A stretch of DNA of 62,046 bases, filler included, from Dirinaria sp. TL-2023a (taxonomy: Eukaryota), in NCBI GenBank assembly GCA_051941275.1. It is 11 parts of 11 records of this genome, joined end to end, with 100 filler letters (N's around TTAATTAATTAA, not from the genome) between each part and the next. Parts side by side here need not be neighbours in the genome. Positions count along the whole stretch, not along the records: positions 28,303 to 33,854 come from JAVEBF010001639.1; 10 more parts are not named here. One strand, given 5' to 3'. The position numbers and the translations under genes were made by a program. Of this stretch, positions 5,571-57,308 are shown piece after piece. How positions within the stretch are numbered: position 1 is the stretch's first letter; each line of letters begins with the position of its first letter. The notes beneath the pieces are model-generated. The model searched no databases. It was not told where the DNA came from and was given only the letters and a program-made list of their open reading frames with translations.

Positions 5571-5670
5571 NNNNNNNNNNNNNNNNNNNNNNNNNNNNNN
5601 NNNNNNNNNNNNNNTTAATTAATTAANNNNNNNNNNNNNNNNNNNNNNNNNNNNNNNNNNNNNNNNNNNN
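5571..5670. other. Artificial contig spacer N44-TTAATTAATTAA-N44 (first of 10)
   Basis: The same 100-nt spacer occurs at 5571, 11234, 16891, 22548, 28203, 33855, 39503, 45143, 50781 and 56415. The 12-mer places stops in all six frames. Confidence 0.98.
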
Positions 5671-8259
5671 CTTAGAGATCTTATGAATACACCTGCTTCA
5701 TACGCTTGCAAGGCGTACTAAATAGTGTAAAGACCTCCTGGAAAGAAGTTTCTCTATATTCCCCGACCAATATTAATGAACTACAGCGATGTAAAGACGG
5801 AGTTGCAAAATAGATTAGTATAAAAATTAATGTTTTGAGTTGGAAGTAAGGCATTATGCATTGAGCGAGCGATGGCAGACATCCTATGTACTGTGCCGTT
5901 TGGACATCCACTATGAAATTCTGATCCTGTGTTTAACATTCTTCGAGTAGAACGAAAAGCAGTTTGAATAATTTTGACCCAACGGCTAGAACACAGGATA
6001 TGTCGAATGGTTTTCTATGAGCATTTAATATTGATTCTCCTCACCGATGTGAAGAGAGAGACGTCTGTCGGTTAAAATTGAGAGACATGCAGTGATGAGG
6101 CGAAATGTAAATTCGTTCGATGCGTCCAATCTCAATCTCATCGTTCAATCGCTGAATCTTACGGTAACAAATTTACCACTCAAGTCAGCAATTCTAAACC
6201 AATGACTAGGATAATGCTGGAGATGTCAATGAAACCATGAAGTGAAATAATACATAGCCACGTTAGAGTTCTTCCCTTAGTGTCATCGTATGGCTTGCGA
6301 TGATTTCCTGCAGCACCCGCTATGTGAGGTCAACAACGGTCTGGCTATTTGGCGTTATAAGCCAAGTTGCCCATAGTATCCTGCAGTTATTGGTAACGTT
6401 CGATTAGCCGCTTTGGATTGACTGTCAGTCTGGGAATGCTGTGCAGAAAATGAAAGGCTCAAAACTAGCACGAGTAAGCTCGACACAGTTCATTGACTGT
6501 CCTTGACTGGAGATCGTTGCCCTGAAATGTGATATAGTATACGAAGTCGAATGTCTGGTCGATCAGTTACTCCGATCTAACTCGATTACTCTCAGTTAAC
6601 CGTCGAAGATCCGCGTGATCACTCTTCGTTGTGGTGGAGCTTTGGGGAAATGACACATATCGAAAGTGTACCAAGGGACATAAGGTAGACAAATTGAATG
6701 AGGCGAAAAGTTAGCCCAAGGCGAAGGCAGAAGCCAATATGAAAAACGATTTCCCTGAAAAATTGCGGCGCGTGAGCGTAGAGGCAAAAGCACGCGCCAG
6801 ACAGCCGAAATTGAAAAAAGCGTACTGTATACCAAAGATCAAATCAAACCCCTGAGGCAGGACACAGACAGTAGATAGTATAAAAAACCCAAAGATCAAA
6901 ATAGCAAAAGATTCATCAGGTCCTCGAGAGCAACCCTTCAACTCTCGAGGTCTCTGACTATAGAAACCCTCTTGTGGCCACCACAGCCGTCAGAAGTTTG
7001 CTTGTGTAGGGTTCGAACCGGCCACCTCTCAGCACCCCATCCTTTTATAGGGGTCTGTTGTAATTACCCTTAAGCTATCGAGGATTTGCTAGTGAAAAAC
7101 TACTTGTTTATTTAGCCTTATATTCCTTATTTTGCAAACCTTTAAAACTGCAAAAATGCTTTACCAGGTTTCTCAATGTCTGTAGCTTGACGCAAATCGA
7201 CAAAAGTAGGATATTCCTATTTTTGAAGCTTCACCTCTAGCATTCGTCGTTGGCAAACATGGGGCATCATAAGCAAAGATGCATCCACCGGTTCACTGCA
7301 GTCCTTGTCGAAAGTCTATGTACTGGCCAAATAGTGGGATATTCTCCCTACAAGTCGTGAATTGTCGCTTGACATCCTTGCGAGAAGGAGATCACATTGA
7401 CCGGCAAATTGATTCATCTTTGAGGGCGATGCCCACAATCTCAACGCACGCTCCTCATGTCAACAACGAGGCACTCCACCATATCTGCCAAATTCTGTAG
7501 CTTGGTCAACCGGGTGAACTGGCAGATGGCCATCGACCCTCGGTCTCGATAGTGAGTAGCACAGGTGGCGAGCGTATGGCGGCAGTACCGGACTCTCAAC
7601 AGTATTCTTGTGGAATCTTAAAACTTGGAGAGCTGATTGTTTGATTGCCACAGCTCTACCGCGATCATCCAACTATGTAACACATGTTCGAATTGGGAAG
7701 CCTGAGCCTCTGCTCAGGAGGATTCTAGTCTCCGTTCTGATGGATCTTGTTGCAAACCATGCGCTATTCTTTTCATCATTAACATAGCTCGTATAGGCAG
7801 CATCACAATACGCGGAGGATATTATGGGAGACTGGATATTAACAACCCTCAGCGTGCAGATACTCGTAATCGCCGGGAAGTAGTGATCTTCTAATTTGGC
7901 GCTCGTCAAAGTCGTCGAGCTCATTCCATCCTTGTGAATTTGATGTCCCCCGATCACACCTTGCGATCTAGTCTTCGTATCTCCATGTTGGTGAATGCCC
8001 CGTATGTGGCCAGAGGCAGATGTGCTGGATATTGAGACACAACGAAGGCAATAGCATAATTGTCTTCATGCATGGTTGCCAATTAGCTTGATACTTGCGG
8101 AAGACAGCGAACGGGAACTGCTTCAGCAGCAGCAACACGGGGTCAACAATGAGCAAAAAATATTGGCAGAAGCAACGGATAGTTGAGGTAGAAGATTTAG
8201 ATATTATACCTAGCATTATTCAACCAGTTAATTCTCGAATGCCCGTTCCCCCAATGCCT

Positions 8260-10994
8260 TTACAGCCTAGCTCTCATCTCGATCCTTTTTCTGCTCCTAT
8301 TTGGTTGCGTGCTCTCGATCACAGGTTGGGCGTCCGGTGTAGCAGCACTTGCAAACAAGTCTTTGCCCACGATATCTGCTAACTTGAGTACCCTCGAGCT
8401 CACAGTGGCGCCGTCCCTTCTATTCTTCCCTTCCCTTCGACTTCGCGCAATCATCTCTGTGAATTCCCACAATTTTCCCGTAGGCACAATATCATGCGTG
8501 GTAGAATCACGGGCCGGAGTCCAATCCGAGGCAAGCTTAATTGAGGAGGGGATTTTCGGATCCCTGCTAGGATTGAGGACGACGATGCCTTCCTCAGCAA
8601 AAAGCTCAAAGGCGTGCTTCAGGGTTTCTGTATTGACAGCTTCAAAGTAGGACAAGTCACCTTGGGCGTGGAGCGTTTTACCTAAAAGCTGAGCTTTATG
8701 TTGTACTTGCTTGAAATTAAGCCACGTATTTTTCTGTTCGGGTGTCCGCGGTGTCAAGCTGATAAGCGAGACTGCACCAAGCCATGTTGATTCGATGAAT
8801 GGCCAGATGAGGAAACAGTAAAAGTCGTAATTCTCACGCCCTCTACTTCGCTCGATATTACTCAGCTCTGCTGTAGTGATGGTGTTGGAGCTGTCACGGC
8901 GGAGGAGAACGACCTCGTCTGCTTCCAGGCCCCTGAGGGTTTTCTCCAGGTTGTGGAGAAGGCCTTCTGTCGGATAGATGAATTCACCTCGGAATAGCTG
9001 GTTCTAGTAAGTCTCTAGTGGATAGTGCTGGGGTAGAGGCATGGGTACCTGAGACAGGAAGAGAACTTGGTCATGCAGAGCTTCGAAGGAGATCCTTTGA
9101 TGATCAGGTCCACCCCCAAGCTTCACTCGAGTATACATAGACGCAGATACAAGTGCTTCTGATATGAATAAGTGTATTGTCATATTCCGGTAAAACGATA
9201 ATTGAAATCTGTCGACAGCGTAATATGTTGTATCCGCTAGATCATGCACGGTACCGATCAAGTCGGGACCGAGAACCTCCAAAGCCCGTTCAACAACGAC
9301 TTCGGTGGGCGCACCTGCGAAGTGAGCTACTCTACCTCCCTTATCTCTGACTCTTGCACTGAGCCAATCGACCCGTCTAACAAATTCAGACTTACCCACA
9401 CCACGGCCTCTAAGTGTCAGGAGGACTGTGCCGACGAGAGCAGTAGGCATAACAACGGAAACTGCATTGATGTCTGATAGCACCTTAAAACCTAAAGTCC
9501 GTAGCAAGCGAATCCTACTATCAGTGCTTTGGGGATCTCTAAGGCTGGCAGGTACCGACGCCTGATCCACCCTTGCCCGCTGTGTGGCAATGAAGCTTTG
9601 CAAGCTCCATGGCTCATGAAAGCGAACATCGACACGACCTAGGCGCAGTGAGAGTACTGAAGAAGCGGATAGGAAGTCCCTGAGGTTTTCCTTTGGCTTC
9701 GGTTGGCCTAATAGTTCGCTGATATATGATCTACCAAATGTAAGCCAATGTGGGTTTTCAGAAATACCATGGCAGTACGAACTCTGTCTCGATGACTTTA
9801 TCATATTGTGTACTGACAGGGCAAATGATTGCATCTTCAACACGGCCGCTTAGGACGCTATCAAGTAGGAAAGACAGTATTCCAAATTTAGGTGAAAGTA
9901 GCTTGCCCGTCCTTGACCGGCCACCTTCAATGAAGCATTCAAAATTGAATCCATTTTGAAGAAGGGTATCTATATAAGTCTGCACGAGAGTTGTGTAAAG
10001 AGAATCGTGGCCGAAGCTCCTTCTAATCCACATGGCACCTGCTCTAGTATCAATCAAGGGAATCTTTGTAGGTGAGAAGTGTTGAAAGAGTGGTGAGAAA
10101 TTTAGCTAATGTCAAAAGGTAGCGAGAAAATGCCTCCATCAGGGAAGCCAATCCTCTCAAAGGATTCCAACGTACCTACACGTTGAAGGAAAGCCCCAAG
10201 TACTGGCATGTTCAGGTTGTCGCCAGCAACAACCGTGGGCAACGCGATTCCTAGCCGATAGCATATAATTTGAAGGGATACGTAGTCGACATGCGAGCGG
10301 TGGCACGGTAGGAATATAATAGACTGCCGTTTCTTTACTGCTTCTTCAGCGACTGAGCGTAGCCGGAGAACTTCTTCACTAGAGACGTGTATTCCTAGAT
10401 TATTTTTATCATTATTCGTTGAAAATTCGTAGATAAACTTGGTATACCTTGGTGGTAGGCCCTCGTAAGCAGCTGTGTACACATGTAATAGGCGCCTCGA
10501 ATTATAGCCTTGCTTTCCAGCTTGCAAATCATGTTGTCTGTCATCTTCTCCGCCACTGCGTTTATACTATTCTTGATTTCTTCTTGTCTTTTCTCTTTCC
10601 TTCGAAGCCTACCATCCTCATCACCAAAAAGCCCCTGCTTGTCTTCCACCTCAACTCTGTTTCTAGCCAAGTCAGCCACTCTTCTTCTCAACAGCGGTGC
10701 CCCTAGCACTTCATTCTTCATATTCTCTGTAAAACCACTGTAGAAGATTGGCTGCCCAATAACATCATCATAGGATCTCCAACCGGCTCCTGAGACGTGG
10801 AGACTGACTTCTCGGAGGAAGTCGAAGGGAGATTCCCGGAAGCGGGCCATGTGCTCCACGAGGTTGCGTTCCTGGTCGCCATGGGTTGTCGGTAGAGGCT
10901 GGATGTATCCCGCTGGGTGTATGGTGACTTGATCACCAAGAATATCGAGATCTGGAGCTGAGTCTTGGGCATTGCCTGGTTTCGGAACGGACAT
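8260..10994 (-). CDS. Glycerol-3-phosphate/dihydroxyacetone-phosphate acyltransferase (PlsB/GNPAT family), multi-exon
   Basis: Acyltransferase motifs FLPCHRSHVDY (HX4D), GAMWIRRSF, FIEGGRSRTGK and ICPVSTQYD lie across consecutive minus-strand ORFs separated by short GT-AG introns. The C-terminus is ...EMRARL*. Confidence 0.9.
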
Positions 10995-11333
10995 GGTGGG
11001 CTTCAGGAGGAGGGCGTCACCTAGGTCAAGGCCCCTCGGTACGTATGACGACAGATCGCAGCATTCTGAGGTGTACGGAAGCTGTACAAGGGAGGGTTAA
11101 GTCACAAATGAACCGTCAAGTGAATGAAAGTTCCAATATCACATATAGACAGGAAAATGCAGAGGCCAAGACTGTCATTTCCTTGTACCCCAGATTTTAG
11201 GGTCTGCCGAGGCCCCTCCAGTCCCCCACGGCCNNNNNNNNNNNNNNNNNNNNNNNNNNNNNNNNNNNNNNNNNNNNTTAATTAATTAANNNNNNNNNNN
11301 NNNNNNNNNNNNNNNNNNNNNNNNNNNNNNNNN

Positions 11334-13877: not shown

Positions 13878-16448
13878 TCACAGGGTTGGGTAGTACCGGA
13901 TGGGTTGAGATAGGGATGAGGGCGCAAAGGAAAAAGAGATATTTATTTCGATGGAGGTTACGGTTAAGGGTGAGCAAAGCTTGCGTAAGAATGTGAGCTG
14001 ACGGATCGGCGAGTCCGCTACTGCATTAAGTCCATTCTGGCGTATTCGGAAGCAGGCGATCGAGGCGTAGAGACGCTGGGGATGTTGGAAAAGATGGTTG
14101 GATATCAAAGATACCTTATTTTCGGGTGGGATTTTGAAAAAGGTAAGATATTCGAAGATGGGGGAGAAGATGAGAGGATGGCGAAGAGAGTTCGGGGAGG
14201 GGGCGAACGAGCAGTATCTGCCTGACAGCAAAGCGGGCGGGTGGATGACTAGAAGTAAAAAGGACGAAGGGGAATGGAAGTATTGGCGTGGCTGTCGGAT
14301 ACCAGCATCGGGCTAAGGTTGATTCGGCAAGGGCTGGATGTACCGGCAGGGGTTTATGGGCGATCAACAACTTGGATGACCTGTCATTGGTGATCGATAT
14401 TTCTGCAGTCCATCCCCCTGTCCCCCCATCCTGCCCGCTCAACCTACCTTCAGGTAAAGTCCGACTCCAGCACTCTCTCGACTGGCCACTGACGTTCGTT
14501 CTCCTACTCGCCGTCCCACCCGGGTGCCCGAGTCACATATTCTTCCGACTCCCAATAGAAAAAGTCCCACACACAGTACAATCCGCGGTCGACTCCGAAT
14601 AGTACCTCAAGGTAGCACATGACACTGCGTGACTTGCTGTTCCCATAGGAGAAATCCCCAACTAGAGGAGTGACGGCACAGACTACCTCTTGCATCAGGA
14701 AATAGATTATACTGGTCAGATGAAACCATGCGGGATCGCTTCCCCGCCCCCCGAACACGGACCATGTGCAACGCACGCGGTCACCGAGTCGCTTTTCACT
14801 CCGTATTCGCTGCGACTCGACAGTCGACACGTTGCGCCTCCAATTGCTTACTCAGAGGAGGAGGATGATTATTATTCTTATCGGAAGGCTTTCAATAATA
14901 ATAATAATCTCCTCCCAATTTTCAATTTTAATTACTGCTGTCCTTAACGGGCGTCGACTGATCATTGATATTGCCTTCCTCTCTCTTCCCGCAGAAGTAT
15001 GCGCCCGTGGCGTTCCCCCATATCACCGCTTTTCCACCACACTTTTTTTTTGGGCGCATCATGCGTGTGTCCAAAATTCCCTCTCTGCATAAGCTCTGAA
15101 TCTCAGGCGGTTGCAGCCGCAGCACCCAAATCCTTCGTTGCAATCCCCCACGGTCCAGCTGTCAGCCAATTACAAGTCTCATTTCCCCTCAAGGATAAAT
15201 TAACGACGCCGCTGCCTTCCTTTCAAATATGTGATTCCCAGTTGGCTGGATCCGGCACCTACGAGTGCCGGTCAACTCTCCACATCGGACAGCTTCTATT
15301 GATTGATCACCAACACCTCGTATTGTTCCTCTTCCAAACGGTCGTCCTTTGACATCGGTTTGAGTCTCGCAAGGCGACGAGTCATTGTTGTCCCTGCTCC
15401 TATGCACGCCTGGTCGCCTTGCCACAGCTGGCACGATCAGGTACAGTCTCACTTCCCTCATGGTGGGCGAGATTATCGGTCTCAACCTCCTGAGCTGCAC
15501 TGCGCACGAGGCACAAGGCTACTGACTCGTATGTTTGTTTACTCCGCACCACCTCGTCTCATCTGTGTGCCTGTTATCTCTGGAGACCCGAGTAGAGTGC
15601 GCTTACGCTGCGTCGTGTGGTTGCACCAACGCTTTTGGGCATGAAAGTTTGACGAGACAAAGCAGCTCCAATTCGGGGCAAGATTGACCTCGGTGAGGTT
15701 GTAGGTACAGTAATCAGTACCCAAATTGTCCCTCCCCTATACTTTAACAAAAGCGATCGAACCTCTCAAAACATGTTCTTGTGGGAAAGCGGTGAGCCAC
15801 GTGACGTGAGGCCTAGACCCAACTACGGTAGCGACAACCTGGAACGAGCCTCAGCCTCGTTCGTGTGCTGATGCACAACCAGCCTTGTCTCACCGCAATT
15901 GGGTCTTTTCACAACATGTTTGGATTAGGAACTGCAGCCACCGAACGCCCTGAAGGAGTCCGAACCCAATTCGTGTTACTGCAACGTTGGACCCTCGCCT
16001 AACGTCGCTCACCAATAAACTCAGCTGAGGGTAAAAGCCACAACCGTCTCCCTGGGTCACAATAATCGAATACTCCAATGTAAAGTCAACGATCTCATTG
16101 GAAAAGCTACCTTAGCCATATCTTGTCCATTTTCAGTGCCGGCGGGCTATGGGCTTGGCTTTCTGAAGCGGCGGTGACATTGGAATGACAGTTCAGCCAA
16201 ATTGATTTCCGTCTAATGAAAATGGTTCCCAAGGCAGCGACCAGGCGACCAATCATGGACTCTCAGCAATGGATGTTGACCGGATTTCCCAATGACCAGA
16301 TTGGTGCGATGCAATAAGGTAACGCTTGTTGCTAAGGTCAAATCATGGCTATCGGATACTATCTCCTCCACTTCTCAGCCATCTTCGCCGGTGCGAGATT
16401 TCTGTTCAGGTGGGTAACATGCCATTTCGTCAGGGGTTGTTATTATCC

Positions 16449-20193: not shown

Positions 20194-23100
20194 CTGGAGT
20201 CGGAATAGAGAAAGTTGAAAGGGCAAGTTCATGTGGAGAGAACAATTGAAGTCATACGCCGCAGTGGATTATTTATGATACAGACTCACAACGGACTGAG
20301 CGAGATCCTAGCTCTCCTCGAGAGAGATTCCTAGCGATATCCATGTTTAGTTCGGAGGCCTACCTGAGAGGATTCAGTATTGTTGGATCGATGTTGGTCT
20401 CTGAGAGCCATAGAATCCAGACTAAGCAGATTTGTTTTGTCCAATTCAGATATGGTGGTTCTGTTAGCTCTCACAATTCGCTGCGATGGAAAGTTACCGT
20501 TGCGTGAACGGCCTGCATTGGTACACTACCTGGACACAAGTGCGCACACTACCTTGGCTTGAACTGTGAGTATTAGGTTTTGAGCGACACTAGTATCTAT
20601 TCCACTAGCAGTGGCTCAGCATAACGGATTGAGGTCGGAACAACACAACCTTGAGGGCAGACCAAAGGTCAGTCCGTCAGGGTATGAACACTGGGCACTC
20701 CATTTCAAGAGACGCCCACGTTGTATATGTTTCAATTAGGGCGGACTGTTTAAGAAAAGCTGCCCCGATTCGAGGCAGGCATCTATGTATGTGGAGAAAC
20801 GGTTTGAGATGCACGGTGGAGATGATTGATGAAGCTGAAGGTAGACCAAGATGGAGGCGACCTTTTCCCATGGAATCATCGACGCTCTCAAATGCACTCT
20901 CTGGAATCAGAGTTTAGAAACCACGGTATAACATAATGATAAATCGCATGGCCTTCAATGCAGGAACAGGAGTCTGGAAGCTGGTACTGGGTGAGGCTGA
21001 CCCACACCGTTGAAAGTTACTTCTTAGCCACAAACGCCGTTTGAAACGAGGCAAGGATTGTGGCCGTGCACACGGTTAGATCCGCGTCAGCAAAACGTCA
21101 TTCTTCATTTCTTGCATCCAGAACGGGCCGGAAATTAAACGACATCCCTGGCAGAAGCGGAGAAAAGACTTTAGCGTAGAGTCAATCGATCCCAGATATG
21201 CCCCTTTTTGGGGATGTCTAGCTTACCTTAGGAGAGCTTCAATTGCTCAAAGTAGCTTGGCCAGGGACAAGCGTGCATAATCAGCCTCGGTTTAACCTCG
21301 AGTCGTATGCCCTTTTCCCATGGCACATCCGCTCTTTGACTTTGCACCGTTTCCTACCTCTCCCTCATGTAAGGCATGTTTGTATAGCATACCAACGAGC
21401 AACTCAGTAGTAAATGTAGCCCCGATCCAAACGCTTAGCCGCTGACCAACAGCCCCCGCAGTCTCTTAAGGTTGACTGGGTTGAGCTAGCTAAAGCTACC
21501 CCGACGATCGCAATGAGTGTCGGGTGTGCAACGATGTGTGGGCGATTAGGAAACGGTATTGATAGAGAAAAAAGAACAAAAAAGTCGAAATCGGAACAAA
21601 AGGACAAGCGACCAAGCGCAAGTGGTGCGAGCGTGCGATACGCCTATGTGATATCTGAAGCTTTTTGGTCACGCGAGCCCGTGTGCTCCATTACTTCTAA
21701 GTGTCAGCTCTGTAAGCCGATTCAGCCAGTTCCTCGTCACTCGACTCTCGAGGACCTCGCCATCGTTAGCTATATTTCGCGGGAAAGTAGCAGCAAACCA
21801 AGTTCTCAATTGATTGGCTGAAAGCCAAATCTTGACACATCGCGTCCATATAGCAAGGGCCGCAAATAACAATACCCGGTTCATGACCCATTAGGGAGTT
21901 CCGAACTTCCGATGGACACGATCTTGGAGAGACGCTATCATTGCGACCGGTGGGAATATTGTTGGGCGGCCCGAAACACCACAGAGGGGAAATCCATGTC
22001 ACTGAATCGACAGTTGTCCATGGCACAACAAGCTCCACATAGCGGGCCGACCGAGTTTTGATTCAATGTCACCTGCGATCTCGCCTCCCCTCGACAACAC
22101 GTCGGGTTTCTGGCCTACAGATTTCTTGAAATGCCGCTACTCAAGTTCAGACCCAGCAATCTCACTTCGTAGTAAGGTTGAAAAGCTTGTGTGTTTAATA
22201 TGGTACCCGTGCTATATTGCTTCAGTGTGAAACGGAAATAGAAGCAGCTGACCAGGTTTCGCAATCCGCGGCTCAAAGCTCCACTCCGGGGACAGCAACC
22301 TCTCTATTAAGTCTCGCCGGGCCTCGGCACCAGCATGAACAAAACACTACGATCGATCCAAACATTTCAAGTTTAGTGTTAAGATTATGAGGGTGCAATC
22401 CAGAATAAGGTGCTAAGTACCCGGTGTGTGGGTGCCAAGCCGCTAGTGAAACGCGCTAAGCCTACTTGGTCAAACCATCCCCAACAACACCAGGTAGGTG
22501 GTTATTGCCCTTCTTAACACTCTGTATTAATGTATGACTAGAAGTCANNNNNNNNNNNNNNNNNNNNNNNNNNNNNNNNNNNNNNNNNNNNTTAATTAAT
22601 TAANNNNNNNNNNNNNNNNNNNNNNNNNNNNNNNNNNNNNNNNNNNNGAGTGAGCCATAGAGGGTGGCTGGCTGGTTTTCTGTTTAGCTACCTAGATGAT
22701 TTATTCTATGGAGTACGAAGCGAAGAGGCAAAATGTAACAACTGAGAGAGAAAGAGCGGTGGGGGCAAGTGTACACTGTGATCGAAGAGAAAAGAGGGTC
22801 TGTTTTTTATTTAATTGGTTGATATGGTTGTTTGGGGAAGACTGCAGGATCAGAGAAAATGGTTGGTACCAAGGTGCACGTTCTATGGGTAGAAGCAGGA
22901 TGCATTTTTCTTGGAACAAAAGCTCCAGCTAAAATACTAACTATTGATGATGACTAATTAAATGACGACACAGGGGGTCGCACCCCGCTCCTTCCACTTC
23001 AATCAGATTTAGAGATCCCTCTTCTGCAGGTTGCTCCCATTGGGTGAGGGAGTGCTCCGCCTTTTCCTGCCCGTTGCAGCGTTGCTCCAGGTAAAGCGAA

Positions 23101-28302: not shown

Positions 28303-29097
28303 ATTCTTGAGATACTGAAAGACGTGTATGATGAAGTCAATAAAGAAAAGAAAATCAATCATGAGTATTATCATTTTAGAATGAGCATCGAGTTATTCAA
28401 TATTTTTTATTTCAAATTAATTAGAAATAATCGCATTTTTAAATATTTGAAGATGCAATTAATAACAGACTTGAAGCGAAAAATCACATATAAACTGCAG
28501 AATATGTTTGTTACTAAAGATGTTAAATTTACTAATTTATTTGAAATGAAGAATTTCTTGCAGATGATTGATATTAAACAACGCAATCTCATCTATAATA
28601 GAGCAGAATATGATCGACGATCAGCATCGCGTATTACATTCACGTCTAAACTCTTTATCGTATTTAATCGTTTTATCGATTATCGAACTCTCTTATCTAG
28701 AACATTGTCATCAAAATCATATCGCTCAGACGATCAACGTCAGAACGTTAATTCACTCAAACGATCTCATTGTTATGAATGTGAAAAGCTGAGTCATTTG
28801 ATCAAGAACTGTCCCGATCGCGATAAAAACAATCGAATTCACGAGATCTATATGAACTCGAATGACTCTGAGAGTCAATGATCATTAGAGAAAAAGCATG
28901 ATCATAAACATGATCAGACGAAAAACGCATAACTCTAGAGAGTGACGTTTCGAAAAACGATATAGTTATTTCAATTTCTAGCTTTGTTTACAATTTTTAT
29001 GAAAACACATCGCATAAAACAGCATTCATCGTGTCATGCATTTTGACGTCATCTTTTGAGCAAATCGATGACATCTGTCTTGTCGATACAAAGTCAA
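28303..29097 (+). mobile_element. Mutated Ty3/Gypsy gag (CCHC knuckle) and start of the aspartic protease, interrupted by an LTR
   Basis: CYECEKLSHLIKNCP matches CX2CX4HX4C. Downstream CLVDTKS resembles the protease LVDTGA motif and abuts the LTR at 29098. The sequence is AT-rich and CC/GG-depleted. Confidence 0.8.
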
Positions 29098-29344
29098 TGT
29101 CATGGCCTGCACAGCGCTCATAGGCATATGGGTACTACTAGACTAGGACACTAAGTATAAGGAAGAAAAGAAGGAAAAAACCAGAAGAAGCAGAAGTATA
29201 AGTACAGGAGGTGCAAGCAACAAATAGGGGATCGGGTATGCGGGTAACACGCCTAGGAGGGTATAGTGCAAAACCCCTTAATATCAGAGTCCTCAGGGTT
29301 CTTCAGGGTTCACACATAGGTGCTTTCAGGTCAGGTTCATGACA
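29098..29344 (-). repeat. 3' LTR of the mini-element (family 1)
   Basis: TGTCATG...CATGACA inverted termini. 18 substitutions versus the copy at 30166-30412 by manual alignment. Confidence 0.92.
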
Positions 29345-30165
29345 TTACCCCCTCCATCTAATTAGCAACGTCTCTGTTGCTGCCACCTCATATAGATTGT
29401 CTAAACAGATCTTGACGATGATGTCTGCCGCGCAGGGCTTTGAGGGTGTTATGGCGTTGAAGCGGGCCATGGCGCATAGGGTCAAAAGCATAATTATATA
29501 AACATGCATTGACGGTTTGGCGGGTTGTCGAGCGGTGCTTTCTTGAACTAATTGGCAGTTGTTTGCACCCAAATTTCCCAGGGGTCAACCCTTTTGCATG
29601 CCCTTATTTGGCGTTGGATTTGGTCCCACCATAACACAGGATGCCTAAGAAGGCCTTGAAGTGCCTGCCGCGCAGAGCTTTGAGGAGTGTCTGAACAGGC
29701 CTTGACGATGCCGTTGAAGCAGGCTCGCTGTAGGGAACGGAGGAGAAGAAGGAGTAGGATCGAAAAGAAGATAGGATTTCGAAGATGAGGTAGAAGCAAA
29801 GATAGACGGTGAGAGTGAGAAGAAAAAGATCTGCAGTTGCTTTTTTCTACTCGTGCAACGCTTAAAACGAGCGGTTTTTTTCTTCTTCTGACTATTGCTT
29901 TTGTTTACTCGTGCAATGTCAAAACGAGTGATCTTCTGTCTTTGTCGTGTAAGAACTTTCCGCATCGATGATGACACGAACTTGAGTCTGCAGTTGCTTT
30001 GTTCTACTCGTGCAACGTTTAAAACGAGCCTTTTATCTTCGCCGTGTAAGGATTTCCCGCATTCTGTCGAGGATGACACGAACTTGAGAGAAGATGACGA
30101 TGATTTAACTCGTTCGTCGCGAGTGTGAATTTTACATCGCTCTTCACGATAGATACTTAGTGTAA

Positions 30166-30412
30166 TGTCAAGGTCTGCACAGCGCTCATAGGCATATGAG
30201 TACTACTAGACCAGAATACTAAGTATAAGGAAGAAAAGAAGAAAAAAACCAGAAGAAGCAGAAGTATAAGTACAGAAGATGCAAGCAACAAATAGGGGGT
30301 CGGGTATGCGGATAACACGTCTAGAAGGATATAGTGCAAAACCCCTTAATATCAGAGTCCTCAGGGTCCTTCAGAGTCCACACATAGGTGCTTTCAGATC
30401 AGGTTCATGACA
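30166..30412 (-). repeat. 5' LTR of the mini-element (family 1)
   Basis: Same 247-bp sequence as 29098-29344, followed on the minus strand by the PBS-like 13-mer. Confidence 0.92.
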
Positions 30413-30846
30413 ACAATAACGTTGTCGCGTATTGTTTTCTGTGCGCTCGCGATGCTCATGATCGTTATTTTCGCTTCATTGCTTTTTTTCTGCACGTGTT
30501 TCTTTTTTTGTACAGCTTTTTCAAGTCTTTTGATCATTTTCTCAAATCGCGCAATCATCGCATCGTTATCATTTTATGTAATCGAAATAATTGCGATTTC
30601 GCTCTGACGCATCTTTGCGCGAATCATGTCGAACAAATTCTGTAGTTTAGTCATCGACATTATTTCGCTGACATTGATTTTTTTAAACTCATAAAATCTC
30701 ACAATCTTATTTATCTCATTCAATATTTCGCTCGATTCTGATATTTTTCTCTGCGAAAACGTCTCGATAATGTCTCGTTCATTTGTCGACGTCGCGTCGA
30801 TCGCGTTTATCTCATCGCGACGATTAAAATGAATCGCGAATCTCAT
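30413..30846 (-). mobile_element. Mutated retroelement structural-ORF fragment (gag or LINE ORF1-like, unresolved)
   Basis: CC/GG-depleted. The coiled-coil-like reading ...MTKLQNLFDMIRAKMRQSE...IARFEKMIKRLEKAV is broken by a stop and lies opposite to the flanking pol. Confidence 0.4.
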
Positions 30847-31241
30847 TGTCAGTGATAATTCTCAGTAATTTTTCGAATTCAAAGATAGTTTTAATTGATA
30901 ATATGATCGAGTTCTTATATTATTATTTCTCGAGTAAGTCAGTCTTTAATAAATTCAATTTCAAAATAATGTATCAAACGAGAGTCAAAAACGTTAAGAT
31001 CGATGCATTAACTCGTCGTTCTGACGATGCTTCACAGAACGACGATGAACGCATTCAATATCAATATCGCATCTTATTAATCTCGAATAAATTAAAAATT
31101 TACGCAATTGAACTCGATTCACAGACTCTCATTCATGATCGTATTCTTAATGTCAATCGCGATGACGAAGAATGTAACGATATTCGTCGATTAATCGAGC
31201 AAGAAAAATCTCATTATAAGAGAATATCTTTTGTAGAATAT

Positions 31242-31459
31242 TGTTACGAGCATGCATCTGATATACTACCTGAGGCAACATCTTTCAGAGCTCTCAGAGA
31301 TAATGCGCTAACTCGATCGAGATGTTTACCCGAAACTCGCACACACGCATATATACTCGGGACTCTTTATTGTATCTAGTTTTTCTTCTTCTTCTTTCCT
31401 TAGTGATAATATCTTAGTTAACTATATCTGCATTGACTTGCTCTGCATCGATTCTAACA
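31242..31459. mobile_element. Solo LTR (family 3) with 5-bp TSD AATAT
   Basis: TGTTA...TAACA, 218 bp, flanked by AATAT at 31237-31241 and 31460-31464. Confidence 0.9.
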
Positions 31460-31707
31460 AATATTTTATCAACGACATCTTATATTATTAAAATCGTTTA
31501 TAAGTTCTCAGTAATATAATCTTGCTAGTCGATTTACTAAAAGAAACTCACGAGACATCTATGATAGATTATCTCGACATCGCAAAAACAATGACTTTAG
31601 TGCGACGTTATTATTATTGACTCAGAATGAAGCAAATTATTATGCAATTCGTGCGCAATTATTATGAATGTTTGAGATTCAAATCCTCTCTGAACAAGTA
31701 TAACGAC

Positions 31708-31922
31708 TGTTAGAACCCGTGCAGAGCTCAGATCAATGCAGATATGATTAACTAAGATATTATCACTAAGAAAAGAAAGAAGAAGAAAAGCTAGATACAA
31801 TAGAGAGTCTCAGATATATATGCGCTTGTGCGAGTAAGAAACTTTATTGAGTTTGGCGTATAATCCCTGAAAAGTCTGAGCAAGTGCCTGAAGTCAAAAC
31901 CTCTAGGTTCATGCTCGTAACA
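31708..31922. mobile_element. Solo LTR (family 3, opposite orientation) with 5-bp TSD ACGAC
   Basis: TGTTA...TAACA, 215 bp, similar to the reverse complement of 31242-31459. ACGAC at 31703-31707 and 31923-31927. Confidence 0.9.
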
Positions 31923-32995
31923 ACGACTTGTTAATTCTCGCACAAGTATCTCAGCGTCGATGACAGAATATCTCAATTGATTTCGTTATCGAATTGTTTA
32001 AGTCAAAAGAAAAGAACGCAATTTATATCATCATCGATAAACTGACGAAAAAACGATATTACATATCGTGTACAACATTAAATAAAAACACAATTGCAGA
32101 GATTATCGCGCGCATCTTAATCAAATGAGTATTTCGTACACACGAATTGTCTAATTTTATAATCTCAGATCGAGACTCTCAGTTTGTGATTATCGTTTGA
32201 AAACACTTCTGCAAACTTTTAAACATTATCGTCAAATTATCAATTATCGATCATTTAGAATCCGATGATCAAATCGAACGCGTCAATCAGAATGTGAAAA
32301 AACAATTACGTTTATATTGCAATTATATGCAGAATGACTGAAAGAATTTATTATCTATCGCCGAATTCGCTGACAGCAACGTCGTTGTCGCGAAAATCGA
32401 AATGATCTCTTTTTATGTCAACAAAGAATTTTATCCGCGTATAACTTTTATCTCAGATGACACTCAGTACGCGACGACACGTGATCGCATACAGACTGCA
32501 AAGACAGAGAACATCGCGGACATTATGCAAAAGATGATAGATCTTATACGTAATAACGCGAAGAAGTCGCAGCAGACAATGAAGATGCAAGCGAATAAAC
32601 ATCGCAAGAAAGTCAATTATGAAGTTGACGATCTAGTATTTCTTTCGAGCAAAAATATAAGCACTGATTGACTCTCACTTAAGTTAAAAGATAAAATGTT
32701 AAGCTCGTTCTCGATAACAAATCGCGTTAACGTCTCATATGAGTTAGAACTGCTCAAAACAATGAGAATACACAACGTCATACATCTTAATCTACTTTGT
32801 AAAGACCTCGATGATTCTTTATTAGATCAAATACGCGAGTCTTCTAAGAAAATCGTCACGAACGACGACGACGAATGAGAATTAATCGAAGTCGTTAGTT
32901 CTAGATAACATTTCGATCGACTGCAATATTAATGTCGATGAATGAATGAGAGACAACGCGATAAAATCTAATACAACACTGATAAAAGTGAATTT

Positions 32996-33854
32996 TGTCA
33001 TGAATCTAGATCTGAAGCATCTTAGATCAGATCACATGATCAGATCACATGATCAGACTCAGCGTTCTCTCGAATCGATATTGCTTCGAATCTCTATTTG
33101 AGTCTTTCTGTAGATAGATTTTCTTTTCTTTTCTTCTTCATAGTTAGTGTTCTAGTTTACTAGCACTCATATGTCATTGAGCGCTGTGCAGATTCTGACA
33201 TTACACTAACTATCACTCTTATCTTTGCACTCGTCGACGTTGCACGAGTAGATCAAGCAATTGCAATAAAAGACTTTATAATTATAAAAATCAGAATGTC
33301 TAGACAGATATCAGACTCTCGAGCACAGCTCACTCAGACTCAGATCTTCTCGATCGTCAATGATCTCATTGACGATGCGATTTATCTGTCTCAGACGATG
33401 AAAGATCTATTAAAGAAGACGACAAATCGCCGCGTGTCGATACTGTTAAAAGAATCAGAAGATTTCTTTTCGAGAACAAATCAAGCAGACTTCTCGAATT
33501 TCATCAACACTGTCGATCAATTGAAGCATTGAGTTCGCAACGACGACAATGCAGTACTCGATTTTATTAAGAAATATCGATTGAAGCGCGATGCAGCATT
33601 ACGCTGTCTAGAAGATTGAAGCATTATGATGAACATGAGAGATAAGACAATGAATCAGATCAGACGTGTTTAAGATAAACTTCAAATGACTAAACAAGAC
33701 TTTGAGAATGAGAAAATCATGAATTTAAGTCTCAATGATCAGTTGCAAGAAAAGAACGATGTGATACGAGATCGCGATATTGAGATATCGACATTGAAAG
33801 AGCAATTGCTCGTTGTCGAGATTGTTGACTCTGATGAAAACTCGATTCACTCGA
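32996..33854 (+). mobile_element. 5' LTR (32996-33200, family 2, related to family 1), PBS, leader and mutated gag start, inserted in the chromodomain
   Basis: TGTCATG...GAGCGCTGTGCAGATTCTGACA shares both ends with the reverse complement of the family-1 LTR. It is followed by TTACACTAACTAT and an ORF from 33296 broken by stops. Internal tandem GATCAGATCACAT. Confidence 0.85.
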
Positions 33855-56378: not shown

Positions 56379-57308
56379 GTAAAAACCCCTTACCACAATC
56401 TCCTTCCTCCCCCCNNNNNNNNNNNNNNNNNNNNNNNNNNNNNNNNNNNNNNNNNNNNTTAATTAATTAANNNNNNNNNNNNNNNNNNNNNNNNNNNNNN
56501 NNNNNNNNNNNNNNCCACAGTCCTGACCCCTAAAGTCCCACACGCGGCCACACCCAGCGAATGCCATTGCCCGGTTCCCCCCGGCTGAAAGGTCATCTCA
56601 GGCGAGCTGGAATGGTCGTCAGGATTTCTAGAATATGCGTTAGATGCTGCATCCAGGCTGCGCCATCTCCCGCAACTTCGTCCACTGGGACCAATGCCCG
56701 TAAATCACGCAGGAACCACAACGTGGCATCCCGCTCCCATGTGGTCATACGGCCAGGCCGAGATGCAGTCCCTCAAGGTTTGTTTGTTAGTGTCAAGGTG
56801 TGGTGTGGTGTGGTGTCTTGTCTCAGGTAGCTTGACTTTTACGTTGAAGCATGACCTTAATCGTTGTTCGCTTCTGGGACTGCTTACGAACGCCAACCCC
56901 ACATGATTGTGGCCTGAAAAGCTACCTGACAAAGCACAATGGATGTCCAATGTCGTCCAATGTCGTCCAAGTCTGGACTTCGGTGTTTCAAGAAACATAA
57001 CAGCGAGCAGGCCGCCACCAATTTGTCGGACGAATCGTTCAATAATGATGCATAAGCCACGTGGGCATTCACACTATGCATCGAGTGGCTTGCAATCACT
57101 GCATCTCGGCCAGAGTCTCGGTATTGCGAAGTAGGTCTTAAGTGCGTATCATGAAGACAAGTGCCGACCCTTGTCCGCCTCTGCCAGCGCCTCAGAAACA
57201 TATATGGCATTGAGCAAGGGCACCATGCTCCCGAGCCCGTGGACTCGGTTCAAACTCGCGATCTTATCAGCCAACATCGGTCGCCTTGGATGACACCATT
57301 CGCTGGCC

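Follow-up and report, generated by a model that had tools for sequence, protein, structure and literature searches.

Self-priming of reverse transcription has been known since 1995, and the biological gain from further examples is therefore modest. Its founding cases are the chromoviruses Tf1 and Tf2 of Schizosaccharomyces pombe, along with Tj1, Tosmo1-3 and Tcry1. As described for Tf1, the first 11 nt of the element's RNA pair with a primer-binding site (PBS) just past the 5′ LTR, and no tRNA primer is used (PMC7175516). A “pretzel” RNA structure has been described for Tf1-type elements (bioRxiv 10.1101/2022.12.06.519325), about half of Tf1 cDNA is reported to have a PBS copied from the primer (PMC11042837), and tandem Tf elements are reported to share one LTR (PMC11042837). 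Self-priming is called common in the Tf1/sushi group, “from fungi to vertebrates” (PMC4600332; bioRxiv 10.1101/2022.12.06.519325), and it has already been described for Tf1, Tf2, Tj1 and several ascomycete elements; PMC6934838, citing Lin and Levin 1997, lists Maggy, Skippy, Cft-1, Boty, Grasshopper and Afut1. A working criterion for predicting it is an LTR complement of at least 10 bp beginning 0–5 bp past the 5′ LTR (PMC6317226; PMC7175516).

We analysed a window of 62,046 nt of DNA, filler included, from Dirinaria sp. TL-2023a, and compared two of its LTR retrotransposon families with these systems through their descriptions. The window elements resemble Tf1 in having an 11-nt self-pair at the PBS and no tRNA primer, in a duplex that joins LTR sequence just 3′ of the primer to the LTR end beside the PBS, and in an integrase with a chromodomain. 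Target duplications of Tf1 are 5 bp, as are those of relatives and solo LTRs of the window elements. The order pol-LTR-PBS-gag on the contig recalls tandem Tf elements, although assembly collapse could mimic it. In contrast to Tf1, the window elements are known from sequence alone, have other primer and PBS sequences and reside in a filamentous ascomycete rather than a fission yeast. With Maggy, Skippy, Cft-1, Boty, Grasshopper and Afut1, as those are described, they share host subphylum, superfamily and the lack of a conventional PBS. Their LTR complements lie in the same range as those by which self-priming is predicted for the Tcn1 clade (Tcn1 of Cryptococcus and Tcn1-like elements of mosses and club-mosses), which differs in its hosts.

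A stack of decayed LTR retrotransposons

The contig at 28303–33854 (5.5 kb) is a stack of decayed ascomycete LTR retrotransposons. Its host places with lichen-forming Lecanoromycetes; the top named matches show 74% identity. This repeat contig is unplaced and may be chimeric.

Judged from its sequence, family 2, the host element of the stack, is a chromodomain-bearing Ty3/gypsy chromovirus of a Lecanoromycete-like ascomycete; among the closest database relatives, one comes from Lasallia pustulata. The 205-nt LTR of family 2 (32996–33200, plus strand), with boundaries TGTCA...TGACA that were read directly, is flanked by the 3′ end of integrase on one side and by the PBS and the 5′ end of gag on the other; a second copy was not found within the window. 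Directly 5′ of the LTR is a purine-rich stretch, TGATAAAAGTGAATTT (32980–32995, plus strand), which by its position and its resemblance to the family-1 polypurine tract is likely a decayed polypurine tract. The integrase core, SH3 and chromodomain-like end occupy 31925–32995 (plus strand) with 10 in-frame stops, and match Pfam SH3_Tf2-1 (7.6e-7) and rve (0.014). This integrase aligned with P0014 at 43% identity, gapless over 350 aa, as far as P0014 residue 1209, a point within the Pfam Chromo domain of P0014 (1170–1219); the window copy, whose sequence is too decayed, gave no direct Pfam Chromo match. The zinc-binding part of the integrase, from the same pol (31456–31713, plus strand; Integrase_H2C2, 1e-8), has a family-3 solo LTR on either side. 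One (31242–31459, plus strand) bears the 5-bp target duplication AATAT/AATAT and shares homology, in its 3′ part, with the other families' U5; the other is inverted (31708–31922, minus strand), with the 5-bp duplication ACGAC/ACGAC. An open reading frame 3′ of the family-2 PBS (33296–33853, plus strand; 3 stops) reaches the contig end and is presumably gag-like, given its position. A gag piece at the contig start (28303–28881, plus strand) contains a CCHC zinc knuckle that we spotted by eye. Pfam searches of both returned no match.

Nested inside family 2, on the opposite strand, lies family 1, a non-coding LTR element of 1,315 bp. Its 5′ LTR (30412→30166, minus strand; 247 nt) is 92.7% identical to its 3′ LTR (29098–29344, minus strand), directly 5′ of which lies the polypurine tract GATGGAGGGGGTAA (29345–29358, minus strand). 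The internal region (29359–30152, minus strand), searched in three frames, matched 0 Pfam families. It holds three copies of a leader motif, GTTGCACGAGTAG, that also occurs once in the family-2 leader (33239–33251); a search for this motif gave 6 matches against 1.09 expected, these four leader copies among them. An identical 6-bp stem forms at all four, with an energy no better than that of shuffles. A target-site duplication is absent from family 1 (flanks GTCAA vs ACAAT), which reflects either a recombinant copy, mutated flanks or a chimeric contig. The window copies of both families are dead, their function lost.

Primer-binding sites and their LTR complements

It had been predicted that neither PBS starts with TGG, and direct reading after both LTRs bore this out: TGG is absent from the first bases past either LTR, which read TT ACACTAA.... 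A PBS of the tRNA 3′-end type is thus excluded. The window contains 0 tRNA genes.

The family-2 PBS, ACACTAACTAT (33203–33213, plus strand), begins 2 nt (TT) past the LTR end. Its exact complement, the candidate self-primer ATAGTTAGTGT, is found at 33140–33150 (plus strand) with a CT-rich tract immediately 5′; the original prediction had the 11-mer right but placed it at 33139–33149, one base off. From this arrangement, the transcript is predicted to begin with ATAGTTAGTGT. In family 1, the PBS ACACTAAGTAT (30163→30153, minus strand) likewise begins 2 nt (TT) past the 5′ LTR. The complement that had been proposed within its own LTR, intact in the 29098 copy, was found there by direct reading: the 3′ LTR copy of the primer, ATACTTAGTGT (29158→29148, minus strand), is the full complement of the PBS, whereas the 5′ LTR copy, ATACTTAGTAT (30226→30216, minus strand), carries a G>A change relative to it and so one A-C mismatch. 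Pairing between PBS and LTR is therefore 11/11 in family 2 and, in family 1, 11/11 with the 3′ LTR copy and 10/11 with the 5′ LTR copy. In both families the pairing ends on both sides at exactly 11 bp, the 11-mer starts 61 nt upstream of the LTR end, and 2 nt separate the LTR from the PBS.

Primer position 4 (C vs G) and PBS position 8 (G vs C) distinguish families 1 and 2. This is one both-sided change, a C:G to G:C swap that keeps the 11-bp duplex, in agreement with the original prediction. A search with the pattern ATASTTAGTGT, allowing at most 1 mismatch, gave 6 matches against 1.11 expected, and 5 of them are the primer and PBS sites; the sixth, at 22934, is an unrelated chance match. Both ends of the family-2 LTR are homologous to the family-1 LTR, and at the 3′ ends the two are 82% identical over 96 nt, so they do not count as independent draws. 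Taken by themselves, families 1 and 2 offer a single covariation event, which 161 of 500 shuffles match, and the test is powerless.

Homologous LTR-PBS junctions in other assemblies belong to three elements, one at locus L005 and two at L006, and each has its own exact 11-bp pair: ATGCTTAGTCT / AGACTAAGCAT at L005 (11103–11174), and at L006 AGTTTAGAATT / AATTCTAAACT (8199–8268) and ACAATTAATGT / ACATTAATTGT (22793→22722, minus strand). The element with the junction at 8199–8268 is full-length (5.9 kb), with an LTR pair, a polypurine tract and the 5-bp duplication ATACC; the minus-strand element (22918→21652) is only ~1.27 kb long and has a perfect 5-bp duplication, TGCAT. We aligned five rows (window families 1 and 2, L005 and the two from L006), two of which had been located via their complementarity. 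When the proposed covariation check was run on this alignment, both sides had changed at 6 of the 11 pairs, which 0 of 500 shuffles reached, and pairing held in 53/54 cells (98.1%) vs only 23–39% with slid partners. A covariance model scored the five 5′ LTR-PBS junctions at 70–84 bits (84.4 for family 2, 74.2 for family 1) and three 3′ LTR copies, taken with flanking sequence and followed by no PBS, at 31–42 bits; it found no further match in 806,540 bases.

Three more distant elements (L084, L085 and L086) have the same layout with unrelated pairs of 10, 9 and 9 nt, respectively: a CT tract, the primer, 82–103 nt to TGACA, a 2-nt spacer, the PBS, and gag-pol on the same strand. These eight elements carry an ascertainment bias, in that L005x, the L006 minus-strand element, L084, L085 and L086 were spotted through complementarity, and only the window elements and L006:8199–8268 were located without using it. 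In a survey of LTR pairs, TGG lay within 8 nt of the LTR in 16 of 25 pairs, all from distant relatives, at loci of 29–38% pol identity. Fifteen of these 16 lacked an LTR complement of at least 7 nt, the exception being L023 with 7 nt. L015 and L016 (44–45% identity; four LTR ends) are ambiguous, having no TGG and just a 7–8-nt complement ~215 nt upstream.

Priming, structure or coincidence

Both window elements very probably start reverse transcription by Tf1-type self-priming, independently of tRNA. This reading, put forward in the original prediction, is supported at the sequence level by the lack of a tRNA-type PBS, by the 11-nt LTR complement and by a helix closing the U5 hairpins. By analogy with experiments on Tf1, the transcript would start at the 11-mer ATA(C/G)TTAGTGT, right behind the CT-rich tract, and the RNA would fold back so that its first 11 nt pair with the PBS and the helix encloses the U5 hairpins. 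The element's own RNase H would cleave after nt 11, a cut with which the duplex of exactly 11 bp in 5/8 elements is compatible, and the released 11-mer would prime minus-strand DNA. Plus-strand synthesis would then copy the primer back into DNA, and a change in the LTR 11-mer could reach the PBS inside one or two cycles. Primer and PBS would change together because the plus strand recopies the one into the other. Mobilisation of family 1 may have depended on a family-2-like element acting in trans.

The minimum-energy fold placed the 11-bp helix around two U5 stems in both families (−22.8 and −21.8 kcal/mol; z −3.1 and −2.5), and the central duplex of the pretzel and its adjoining U5 duplex are present and kept in both. 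Folds alone do not tell whether a helix serves priming or structure, and conserved U5-leader stems occur in retroviral leaders. The helix could be a structural stem of the leader, serving packaging, dimerisation or translation control, with priming by other means. The third pretzel duplex, between sequence downstream of the PBS and U5, is not supported by the folding model in the window elements: its energy was −12.4 kcal/mol in family 2, matched by 125 of 1000 shuffles, and −7.5 kcal/mol in family 1, matched by 931 of 1000. That it was not found here, a further difference from Tf1, would fit a structural stem. However, the 3′ arm lies where a PBS is required, 1–2 nt past the terminal CA of the LTR, in 8/8 elements, and there is no alternative TGG PBS close by. 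The 5′ arm directly follows a CT-rich tract in 7/8, as expected of a start site, and the helix length (9–11 bp overall, exactly 11 bp in 5/8) fits the Tf1 primer as given in PMC7175516. We therefore regard a structural stem as improbable.

Priming by an unseen host RNA, with the LTR complement as a side effect, is more improbable still. The primer might, on the model of copia- or Ty5-like elements, be a half-tRNA or an internal tRNA fragment, and half-tRNA PBSs are known in some plant Ty1/copia lineages (PMC6317226). In that survey, however, the half-tRNA type was confined to Ty1/copia. The eight elements, moreover, have eight different PBSs, each matched by its own LTR, and the five homologous elements covary at the positions given above; a host RNA could not track each of them.

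Self-priming was also set against coincidence with dinucleotide shuffles of the LTR (n = 5000), accepting any PBS offset of 0–5 nt. An 11-nt complement was reached in 0 of 5000 shuffles for family 2 and in 3 of 5000 for the family-1 PBS with the 3′ LTR copy; against the 5′ LTR copy, which is mutated, exact pairing extends over 9 nt at most, and 60 of 5000 shuffles reached that length. A blind scan of related loci, which was noisy, found complements of at least 9 nt at 14 of 2115 TGACA+2 sites vs 25 of 8460 control offsets, and 9 per 29.8 kb upstream vs 11 per 40.3 kb inside pol. Although such control hits speak for a chance inverted repeat in AT-rich repeat DNA, chance is hardly credible here, given how rarely shuffles reach 11 nt and given a position and layout that recur in homologous elements with their changes compensated.

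Miniature elements and their own primer pairs

Most described TRIMs have tRNA-type PBSs. Family 1 has the features of short TRIM/LARD elements (two LTRs, a PBS, a polypurine tract and zero coding capacity) and, like the ~1.27-kb L006 element, it is small. Unlike those TRIMs, both carry a self-priming pair. With these two as its examples, we tentatively suggest, as a reading that may well prove wrong, that the primer-PBS pair acts as a private, fast-drifting address in this ascomycete chromovirus lineage, and that freedom from host tRNAs lets tiny non-coding LTR elements ride autonomous ones. Recopying of the PBS from the 5′ end of the element itself would leave each family with a private pair of 9–11 nt. 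The miniature riders would retain no more than the LTR ends and U5 fold, a private primer-PBS pair, the polypurine tract and the repeated leader hairpin motif. If this is true, self-primed miniature LTR elements are a variant of which our limited literature search found no description in fungi.

The window families add elements of lichen-type ascomycetes to the list of self-priming retrotransposons, and the natural compensatory changes at six of 11 positions in five related elements back the mechanism by comparison alone. Annotation tools that rely solely on tRNA matches would call these families “no PBS”; a check for LTR complements at 0–5 nt past the LTR would class them correctly. Most noteworthy, in our view, are family 1 and the ~1.27-kb L006 element, each small, non-coding and equipped with a primer-PBS pair of its own, together with the odd way in which family 2, the host element and one saturated with mutations, has mutated.

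Complementarity between LTR and primer-binding site in the window

Two LTR families on one contig (28303-33854) carry an 11-nt LTR stretch, the putative primer, that is complementary to a PBS (primer-binding site) just downstream of the same LTR. In family 2, the Ty3/gypsy element that hosts the others, the 11-mer ATAGTTAGTGT lies at 33140-33150 and the PBS ACACTAACTAT at 33203-33213. In family 1, a small non-coding element on the minus strand, the 11-mer reads ATACTTAGTGT in the 3' LTR and ATACTTAGTAT in the 5' LTR, and the PBS is ACACTAAGTAT (30163->30153). The original prediction had proposed an 11-nt LTR complement for each PBS; both are present, although the family-2 coordinates had to be moved by one base. 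The 11-mer of either family begins 61 nt short of the LTR end, the spacer between LTR and PBS is 2 nt, and the complementarity is exactly 11 bp long and does not extend beyond. Neither family has a TGG after the LTR.

Chance complementarity was evaluated by shuffling the LTR 5000 times and seeking an 11-nt complement at offsets 0-5. None of the 5000 shuffles gave one for family 2, and three did for the family-1 PBS against its 3' LTR copy. With the mutated 5' LTR copy, exact complementarity ran to at most 9 nt, a length reached by 60 of 5000 shuffles. When the RNAs were folded, the 11-bp helix closed two U5 stems in both families, with energies of -22.8 and -21.8 kcal/mol; among 200 shuffles, 2 and 1, respectively, folded as well. 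The two families are homologous over their last 96 nt (82%) and therefore represent one lineage with one both-sided change. For covariation judged from just the three window sequences, the control by shuffling was without power (161/500). In a literature text search, 19 papers contained one or more of the four 11-mers, and the 10 of them that were listed have unrelated titles.

Relatives in other assemblies and covariation

Scanning metagenome contigs with the conserved U5 motif returned only four loci (L001-L004), each of them GC-rich, unrelated DNA matched by chance, and searching viral contigs with the decayed integrase alone gave nine pattern matches, none of them confirmed. Relatives were recovered with an alignment of 17 intact polyproteins, which yielded 79 loci from a prokaryote genome collection and four from a viral collection. 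The former (L005-L083) were kept from 103 stretches encoding Ty3/gypsy polyproteins, in records whose titles name bacterial or archaeal genomes or MAGs. Many show paired LTRs, target duplications and PBSs of the TGG type, and some are on contigs that range from hundreds of kb to several Mb; the loci look like eukaryotic retrotransposon contigs binned or labelled as prokaryote.

LTR pairs were located first by self-comparison, blind to the PBS, giving 25 pairs in 21 loci. In sixteen of these pairs a TGG lies no more than 8 nt from the LTR end, all of them in loci with 29-38% pol identity to the query family; fifteen of them lack an LTR complement of at least 7 nt, and the remaining one (L023) has a complement of 7 nt. 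For two further pairs (L042, L043) the alignment ended early and a TGG lies a few bases beyond. Four pairs in two loci at 44-45% identity (L015, L016) have no TGG and a complement of only 7-8 nt, leaving their priming type ambiguous. One pair belongs to a full-length element in L006 (46% identity), with LTRs at 8107-8256 and 13897-14046, a polypurine tract (PPT) and a 5-bp duplication, ATACC. This element has no TGG but an exact 11-nt complement, AGTTTAGAATT / AATTCTAAACT, and its U5 has CTAGTCTA and CCCATATG in common with that of window family 1. One further L006 pair is probably not an LTR. The AT-rich loci L007-L011 yielded no convincing LTR-PBS junction.

Five more junctions were found by complement scan. 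The first, at L005:11103-11174, reads ATGCTTAGTCT / AGACTAAGCAT, and the 21 nt upstream of its primer nearly repeat what lies upstream of the primer in family 2. The second, at L006 22793->22722, is an exact 11-bp pair, ACAATTAATGT / ACATTAATTGT, and belongs to an LTR element of ~1.27 kb (21652-22918, minus strand). This element has two LTRs, its PPT is AGAGAGGGGAGTAA, and its 5-bp duplication, TGCAT, is perfect. Its LTR resembles that of window family 3, and no long open reading frame was seen in it by eye. It is a second miniature, putatively self-primed element, in another assembly. The other three junctions are in more distant loci (L084, L085 and L086; 42, 41 and 36% identity), where pairs of 10, 9 and 9 nt follow TGACA + 2 nt, upstream of gag-pol and on its strand. 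All six new junctions fold with a closing helix (z of -2.1 to -5.2). The complement scan is noisy by itself, as complements of at least 9 nt occurred at 14 of 2115 TGACA+2 sites versus 25 of 8460 control offsets, and with a looser filter matches inside pol were as many as those upstream of it. The added loci were therefore judged on other features: where they lie, their LTR ends and spacer, the CT tract, duplicate LTRs and homology of the flanks.

Five homologous junctions, two of which had first been noticed via their complementarity, were aligned by sequence with MAFFT, and primer and PBS fell in register. Of the 54 cells in the alignment, 53 pair. Both-sided changes affect 6 of 11 pairs (10 cells), and none of 500 shuffles matched the observed pairing, the number of changed pairs or the covariation score. 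When partners were shifted by 1-3 columns, only 23-39% of cells paired. L005 alone contributes two more compensated positions relative to family 1. Covariation among family relatives, the check that the original prediction had called for, thus came out in its favor in an alignment with two of five rows noticed via complementarity.

A covariance model built from this alignment scored 70-84 bits at the five 5' junctions and 31-42 bits on three 3' LTR copies, flanks included. It is therefore only after 5' LTRs that the complement occurs, as required of a PBS. Apart from the rows used to build it and the corresponding 3' LTR copies, the model found no members over 806,540 bases.

Comparison with known self-priming elements

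On sequence grounds, the best reading of the window elements is Tf1-type self-priming. In priming of this type, named for the S. pombe retrotransposon Tf1, RNase H is described as cutting between bases 11 and 12 of the transcript, after which the short RNA primes reverse transcription (PMC7175516). Tf1 is reported to need a three-duplex “pretzel,” which other fission-yeast elements can also form (bioRxiv 10.1101/2022.12.06.519325). Two of these three duplexes are present and kept in the window elements, whereas the third, which pairs PBS-downstream sequence with U5, was no better than shuffles and is not supported there.

The coupled change of primer and PBS would be expected because, in the standard reverse-transcription scheme, the plus strand copies the primer, and a primer change would thereby pass to the PBS. 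For Tf1, about half of the cDNA is reported to have a PBS copied from the primer (PMC11042837). Directly before the primer, 7 of 8 elements have a CT-rich tract. Plus-strand, gene-proximal CT tracts are described as common upstream of Aspergillus genes (PMC3730340), and the tract would be compatible with a transcript start at the primer.

Self-priming is described as a common feature of the Tf1/sushi group, from fungi to vertebrates (PMC4600332; bioRxiv 10.1101/2022.12.06.519325), and a proposal of self-priming exists, too, for Tcn1 of Cryptococcus and for Tcn1-like elements of plants (PMC6317226, PMC7175516). A published sequence criterion is a complement of at least 10 bp located 0-5 bp after the LTR (PMC6317226), and the window elements have such a complement. 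To judge from their sequence, they are a further example of already known self-priming. The small, putatively self-primed LTR elements may be a minor new variant; a limited literature search found no account of such elements.

Organization and decay of the contig

The window strings unplaced contigs, with sizes descending from 5,570 to 5,532 bp, into a pseudo-molecule by means of 100-nt linkers (44 N + TTAATTAATTAA + 44 N; 5571-5670, 11234-11333, and so on to 56415-56514); contigs adjacent in it are therefore not adjacent in the genome. The contig that bears both putatively self-priming elements has a GC content of 37%, versus 47-53% in neighboring contigs. These carry ordinary eukaryotic genes (DEAH helicase, ArgJ, CLPTM1 and transketolase), and the best named relatives of the CLPTM1 fragment are lichen-forming Lecanoromycetes (~74% identity). 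The window contains no tRNA genes, and an Rfam search of the contig returned a single sub-threshold chance match (16.9 bits versus a cut-off of 60).

The contig was read in six frames and then translated with X for stops. The host element, on the plus strand, comprises a gag piece with a CCHC knuckle (28303-28881), an RNase H end (30870-31250), an integrase zinc-binding domain (31456-31713; Pfam Integrase_H2C2, 1e-8) and an integrase core with SH3 and a chromodomain-like end (31925-32995; SH3_Tf2-1, 7.6e-7). The product of 31925-32995 aligns without gaps, at 43% identity, with a database polyprotein, and the alignment extends into the latter's Pfam Chromo domain; family 2 is therefore a chromovirus. 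There is a purine-rich stretch between the integrase and the 205-nt LTR (TGTCA...TGACA, 32996-33200), which is followed by TT, the 11-nt site and an open reading frame reaching the contig end. This pol-LTR-PBS-gag order could represent a tandem pair with one common LTR or, equally, a collapsed repeat assembly. Both window 32980-33300 and positions 1-230 of L085, an IMG/VR contig, hold PPT-LTR-PBS-gag in one piece, with the 3' end joined to the 5' end via a single LTR; each would be explained either by elements in tandem or by a circular-looking repeat assembly. Tandem Tf1/Tf2 elements with one LTR in common have been described (PMC11042837).

Family 1 runs on the minus strand from a 5' LTR (30412->30166), followed by TT and the PBS, through an internal region of ~800 nt with no Pfam domain in three frames, to a polypurine tract, GATGGAGGGGGTAA, and a 3' LTR (29344->29098) of 247 nt, like the 5' LTR. 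Of the 18 differences between the two LTRs, 17 are transitions, and target duplication is absent at the element's flanks. Directly upstream of the 5' LTR, in element sense, is an open frame of 146 codons with one stop (30415-30852, minus strand); it matches no Pfam family above noise and shows a CC/GG loss like that of the host element.

Families 1 and 2 have in common their LTR ends, U5 fold, priming-signal layout and a 13-nt leader motif, GTTGCACGAGTAG. One copy of the motif is in the family-2 leader, starting 26 nt beyond the PBS (33239-33251, plus strand), and three are in the family-1 internal region (30016->30004, 29917->29905 and 29859->29847, minus strand); a search gave six matches versus 1.09 expected. 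It provides the 3' half of a short hairpin with an identical stem in all four copies, the fold energy of which was no better than that of shuffles (35-90 of 200 folded equally well or better). The motif may be a packaging or dimerisation signal common to both families. We infer that family 1 is non-autonomous and rides on an element like family 2.

Neither window copy is functional any longer: in family 2 the integrase piece by itself holds 10 stops, and the primer in the family-1 5' LTR carries a mismatch. We compared the dinucleotide content of the host element (28303-29097 plus 30413-33854) with that of family 1 (29098-30412) and of all other contigs. The host element contains 8 CC where 121 are expected and 1 GG where 101 are expected. 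Its symmetrised CC/GG odds ratio is 0.05-0.10, versus 0.93 in the nested family 1 and 0.98 in other contigs; TC/GA (~1.6) and CG (1.8-1.9) are raised, and CA/TG and TA are normal. Between the family-1 LTRs, 15 of the 17 transitions are at a C before C. The pattern suggests a C>T process directed at CpC, not the usual CpA. The classical RIP indices do not flag this contig (TpA/ApT 0.65), and RIP in the usual CpA sense was dropped as a label. Among the four possible forms given by RIPCAL, CpC>TpC is only one (PMC2621366). Strong RIP is reported in a lichen-genome paper (PMC12542154). Among 1464 1-kb windows, five had a CC/GG ratio below 0.3, every one in contig 28303-33854; the depletion was absent from the 1-kb windows of 83 related loci. 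CC and GG, the dinucleotides removed by this process, are absent from the 11-mers and PBSs, and the survival of these sites is therefore uninformative on selection after element death.

Family 3 is represented by two solo LTRs inside the integrase gene, in opposite orientation and 248 bp apart, each with a perfect 5-bp target duplication (31242-31459, plus strand, AATAT; 31708-31922, minus strand, ACGAC). It has no PBS in the window; its self-primer is predicted, by alignment with the small L006 element, to be the 11-mer after the CT tract, and the complement of that 11-mer would be its PBS. These solo LTRs probably arrived once the host element had undergone most of its mutation, because their CC/GG depletion is only partial.
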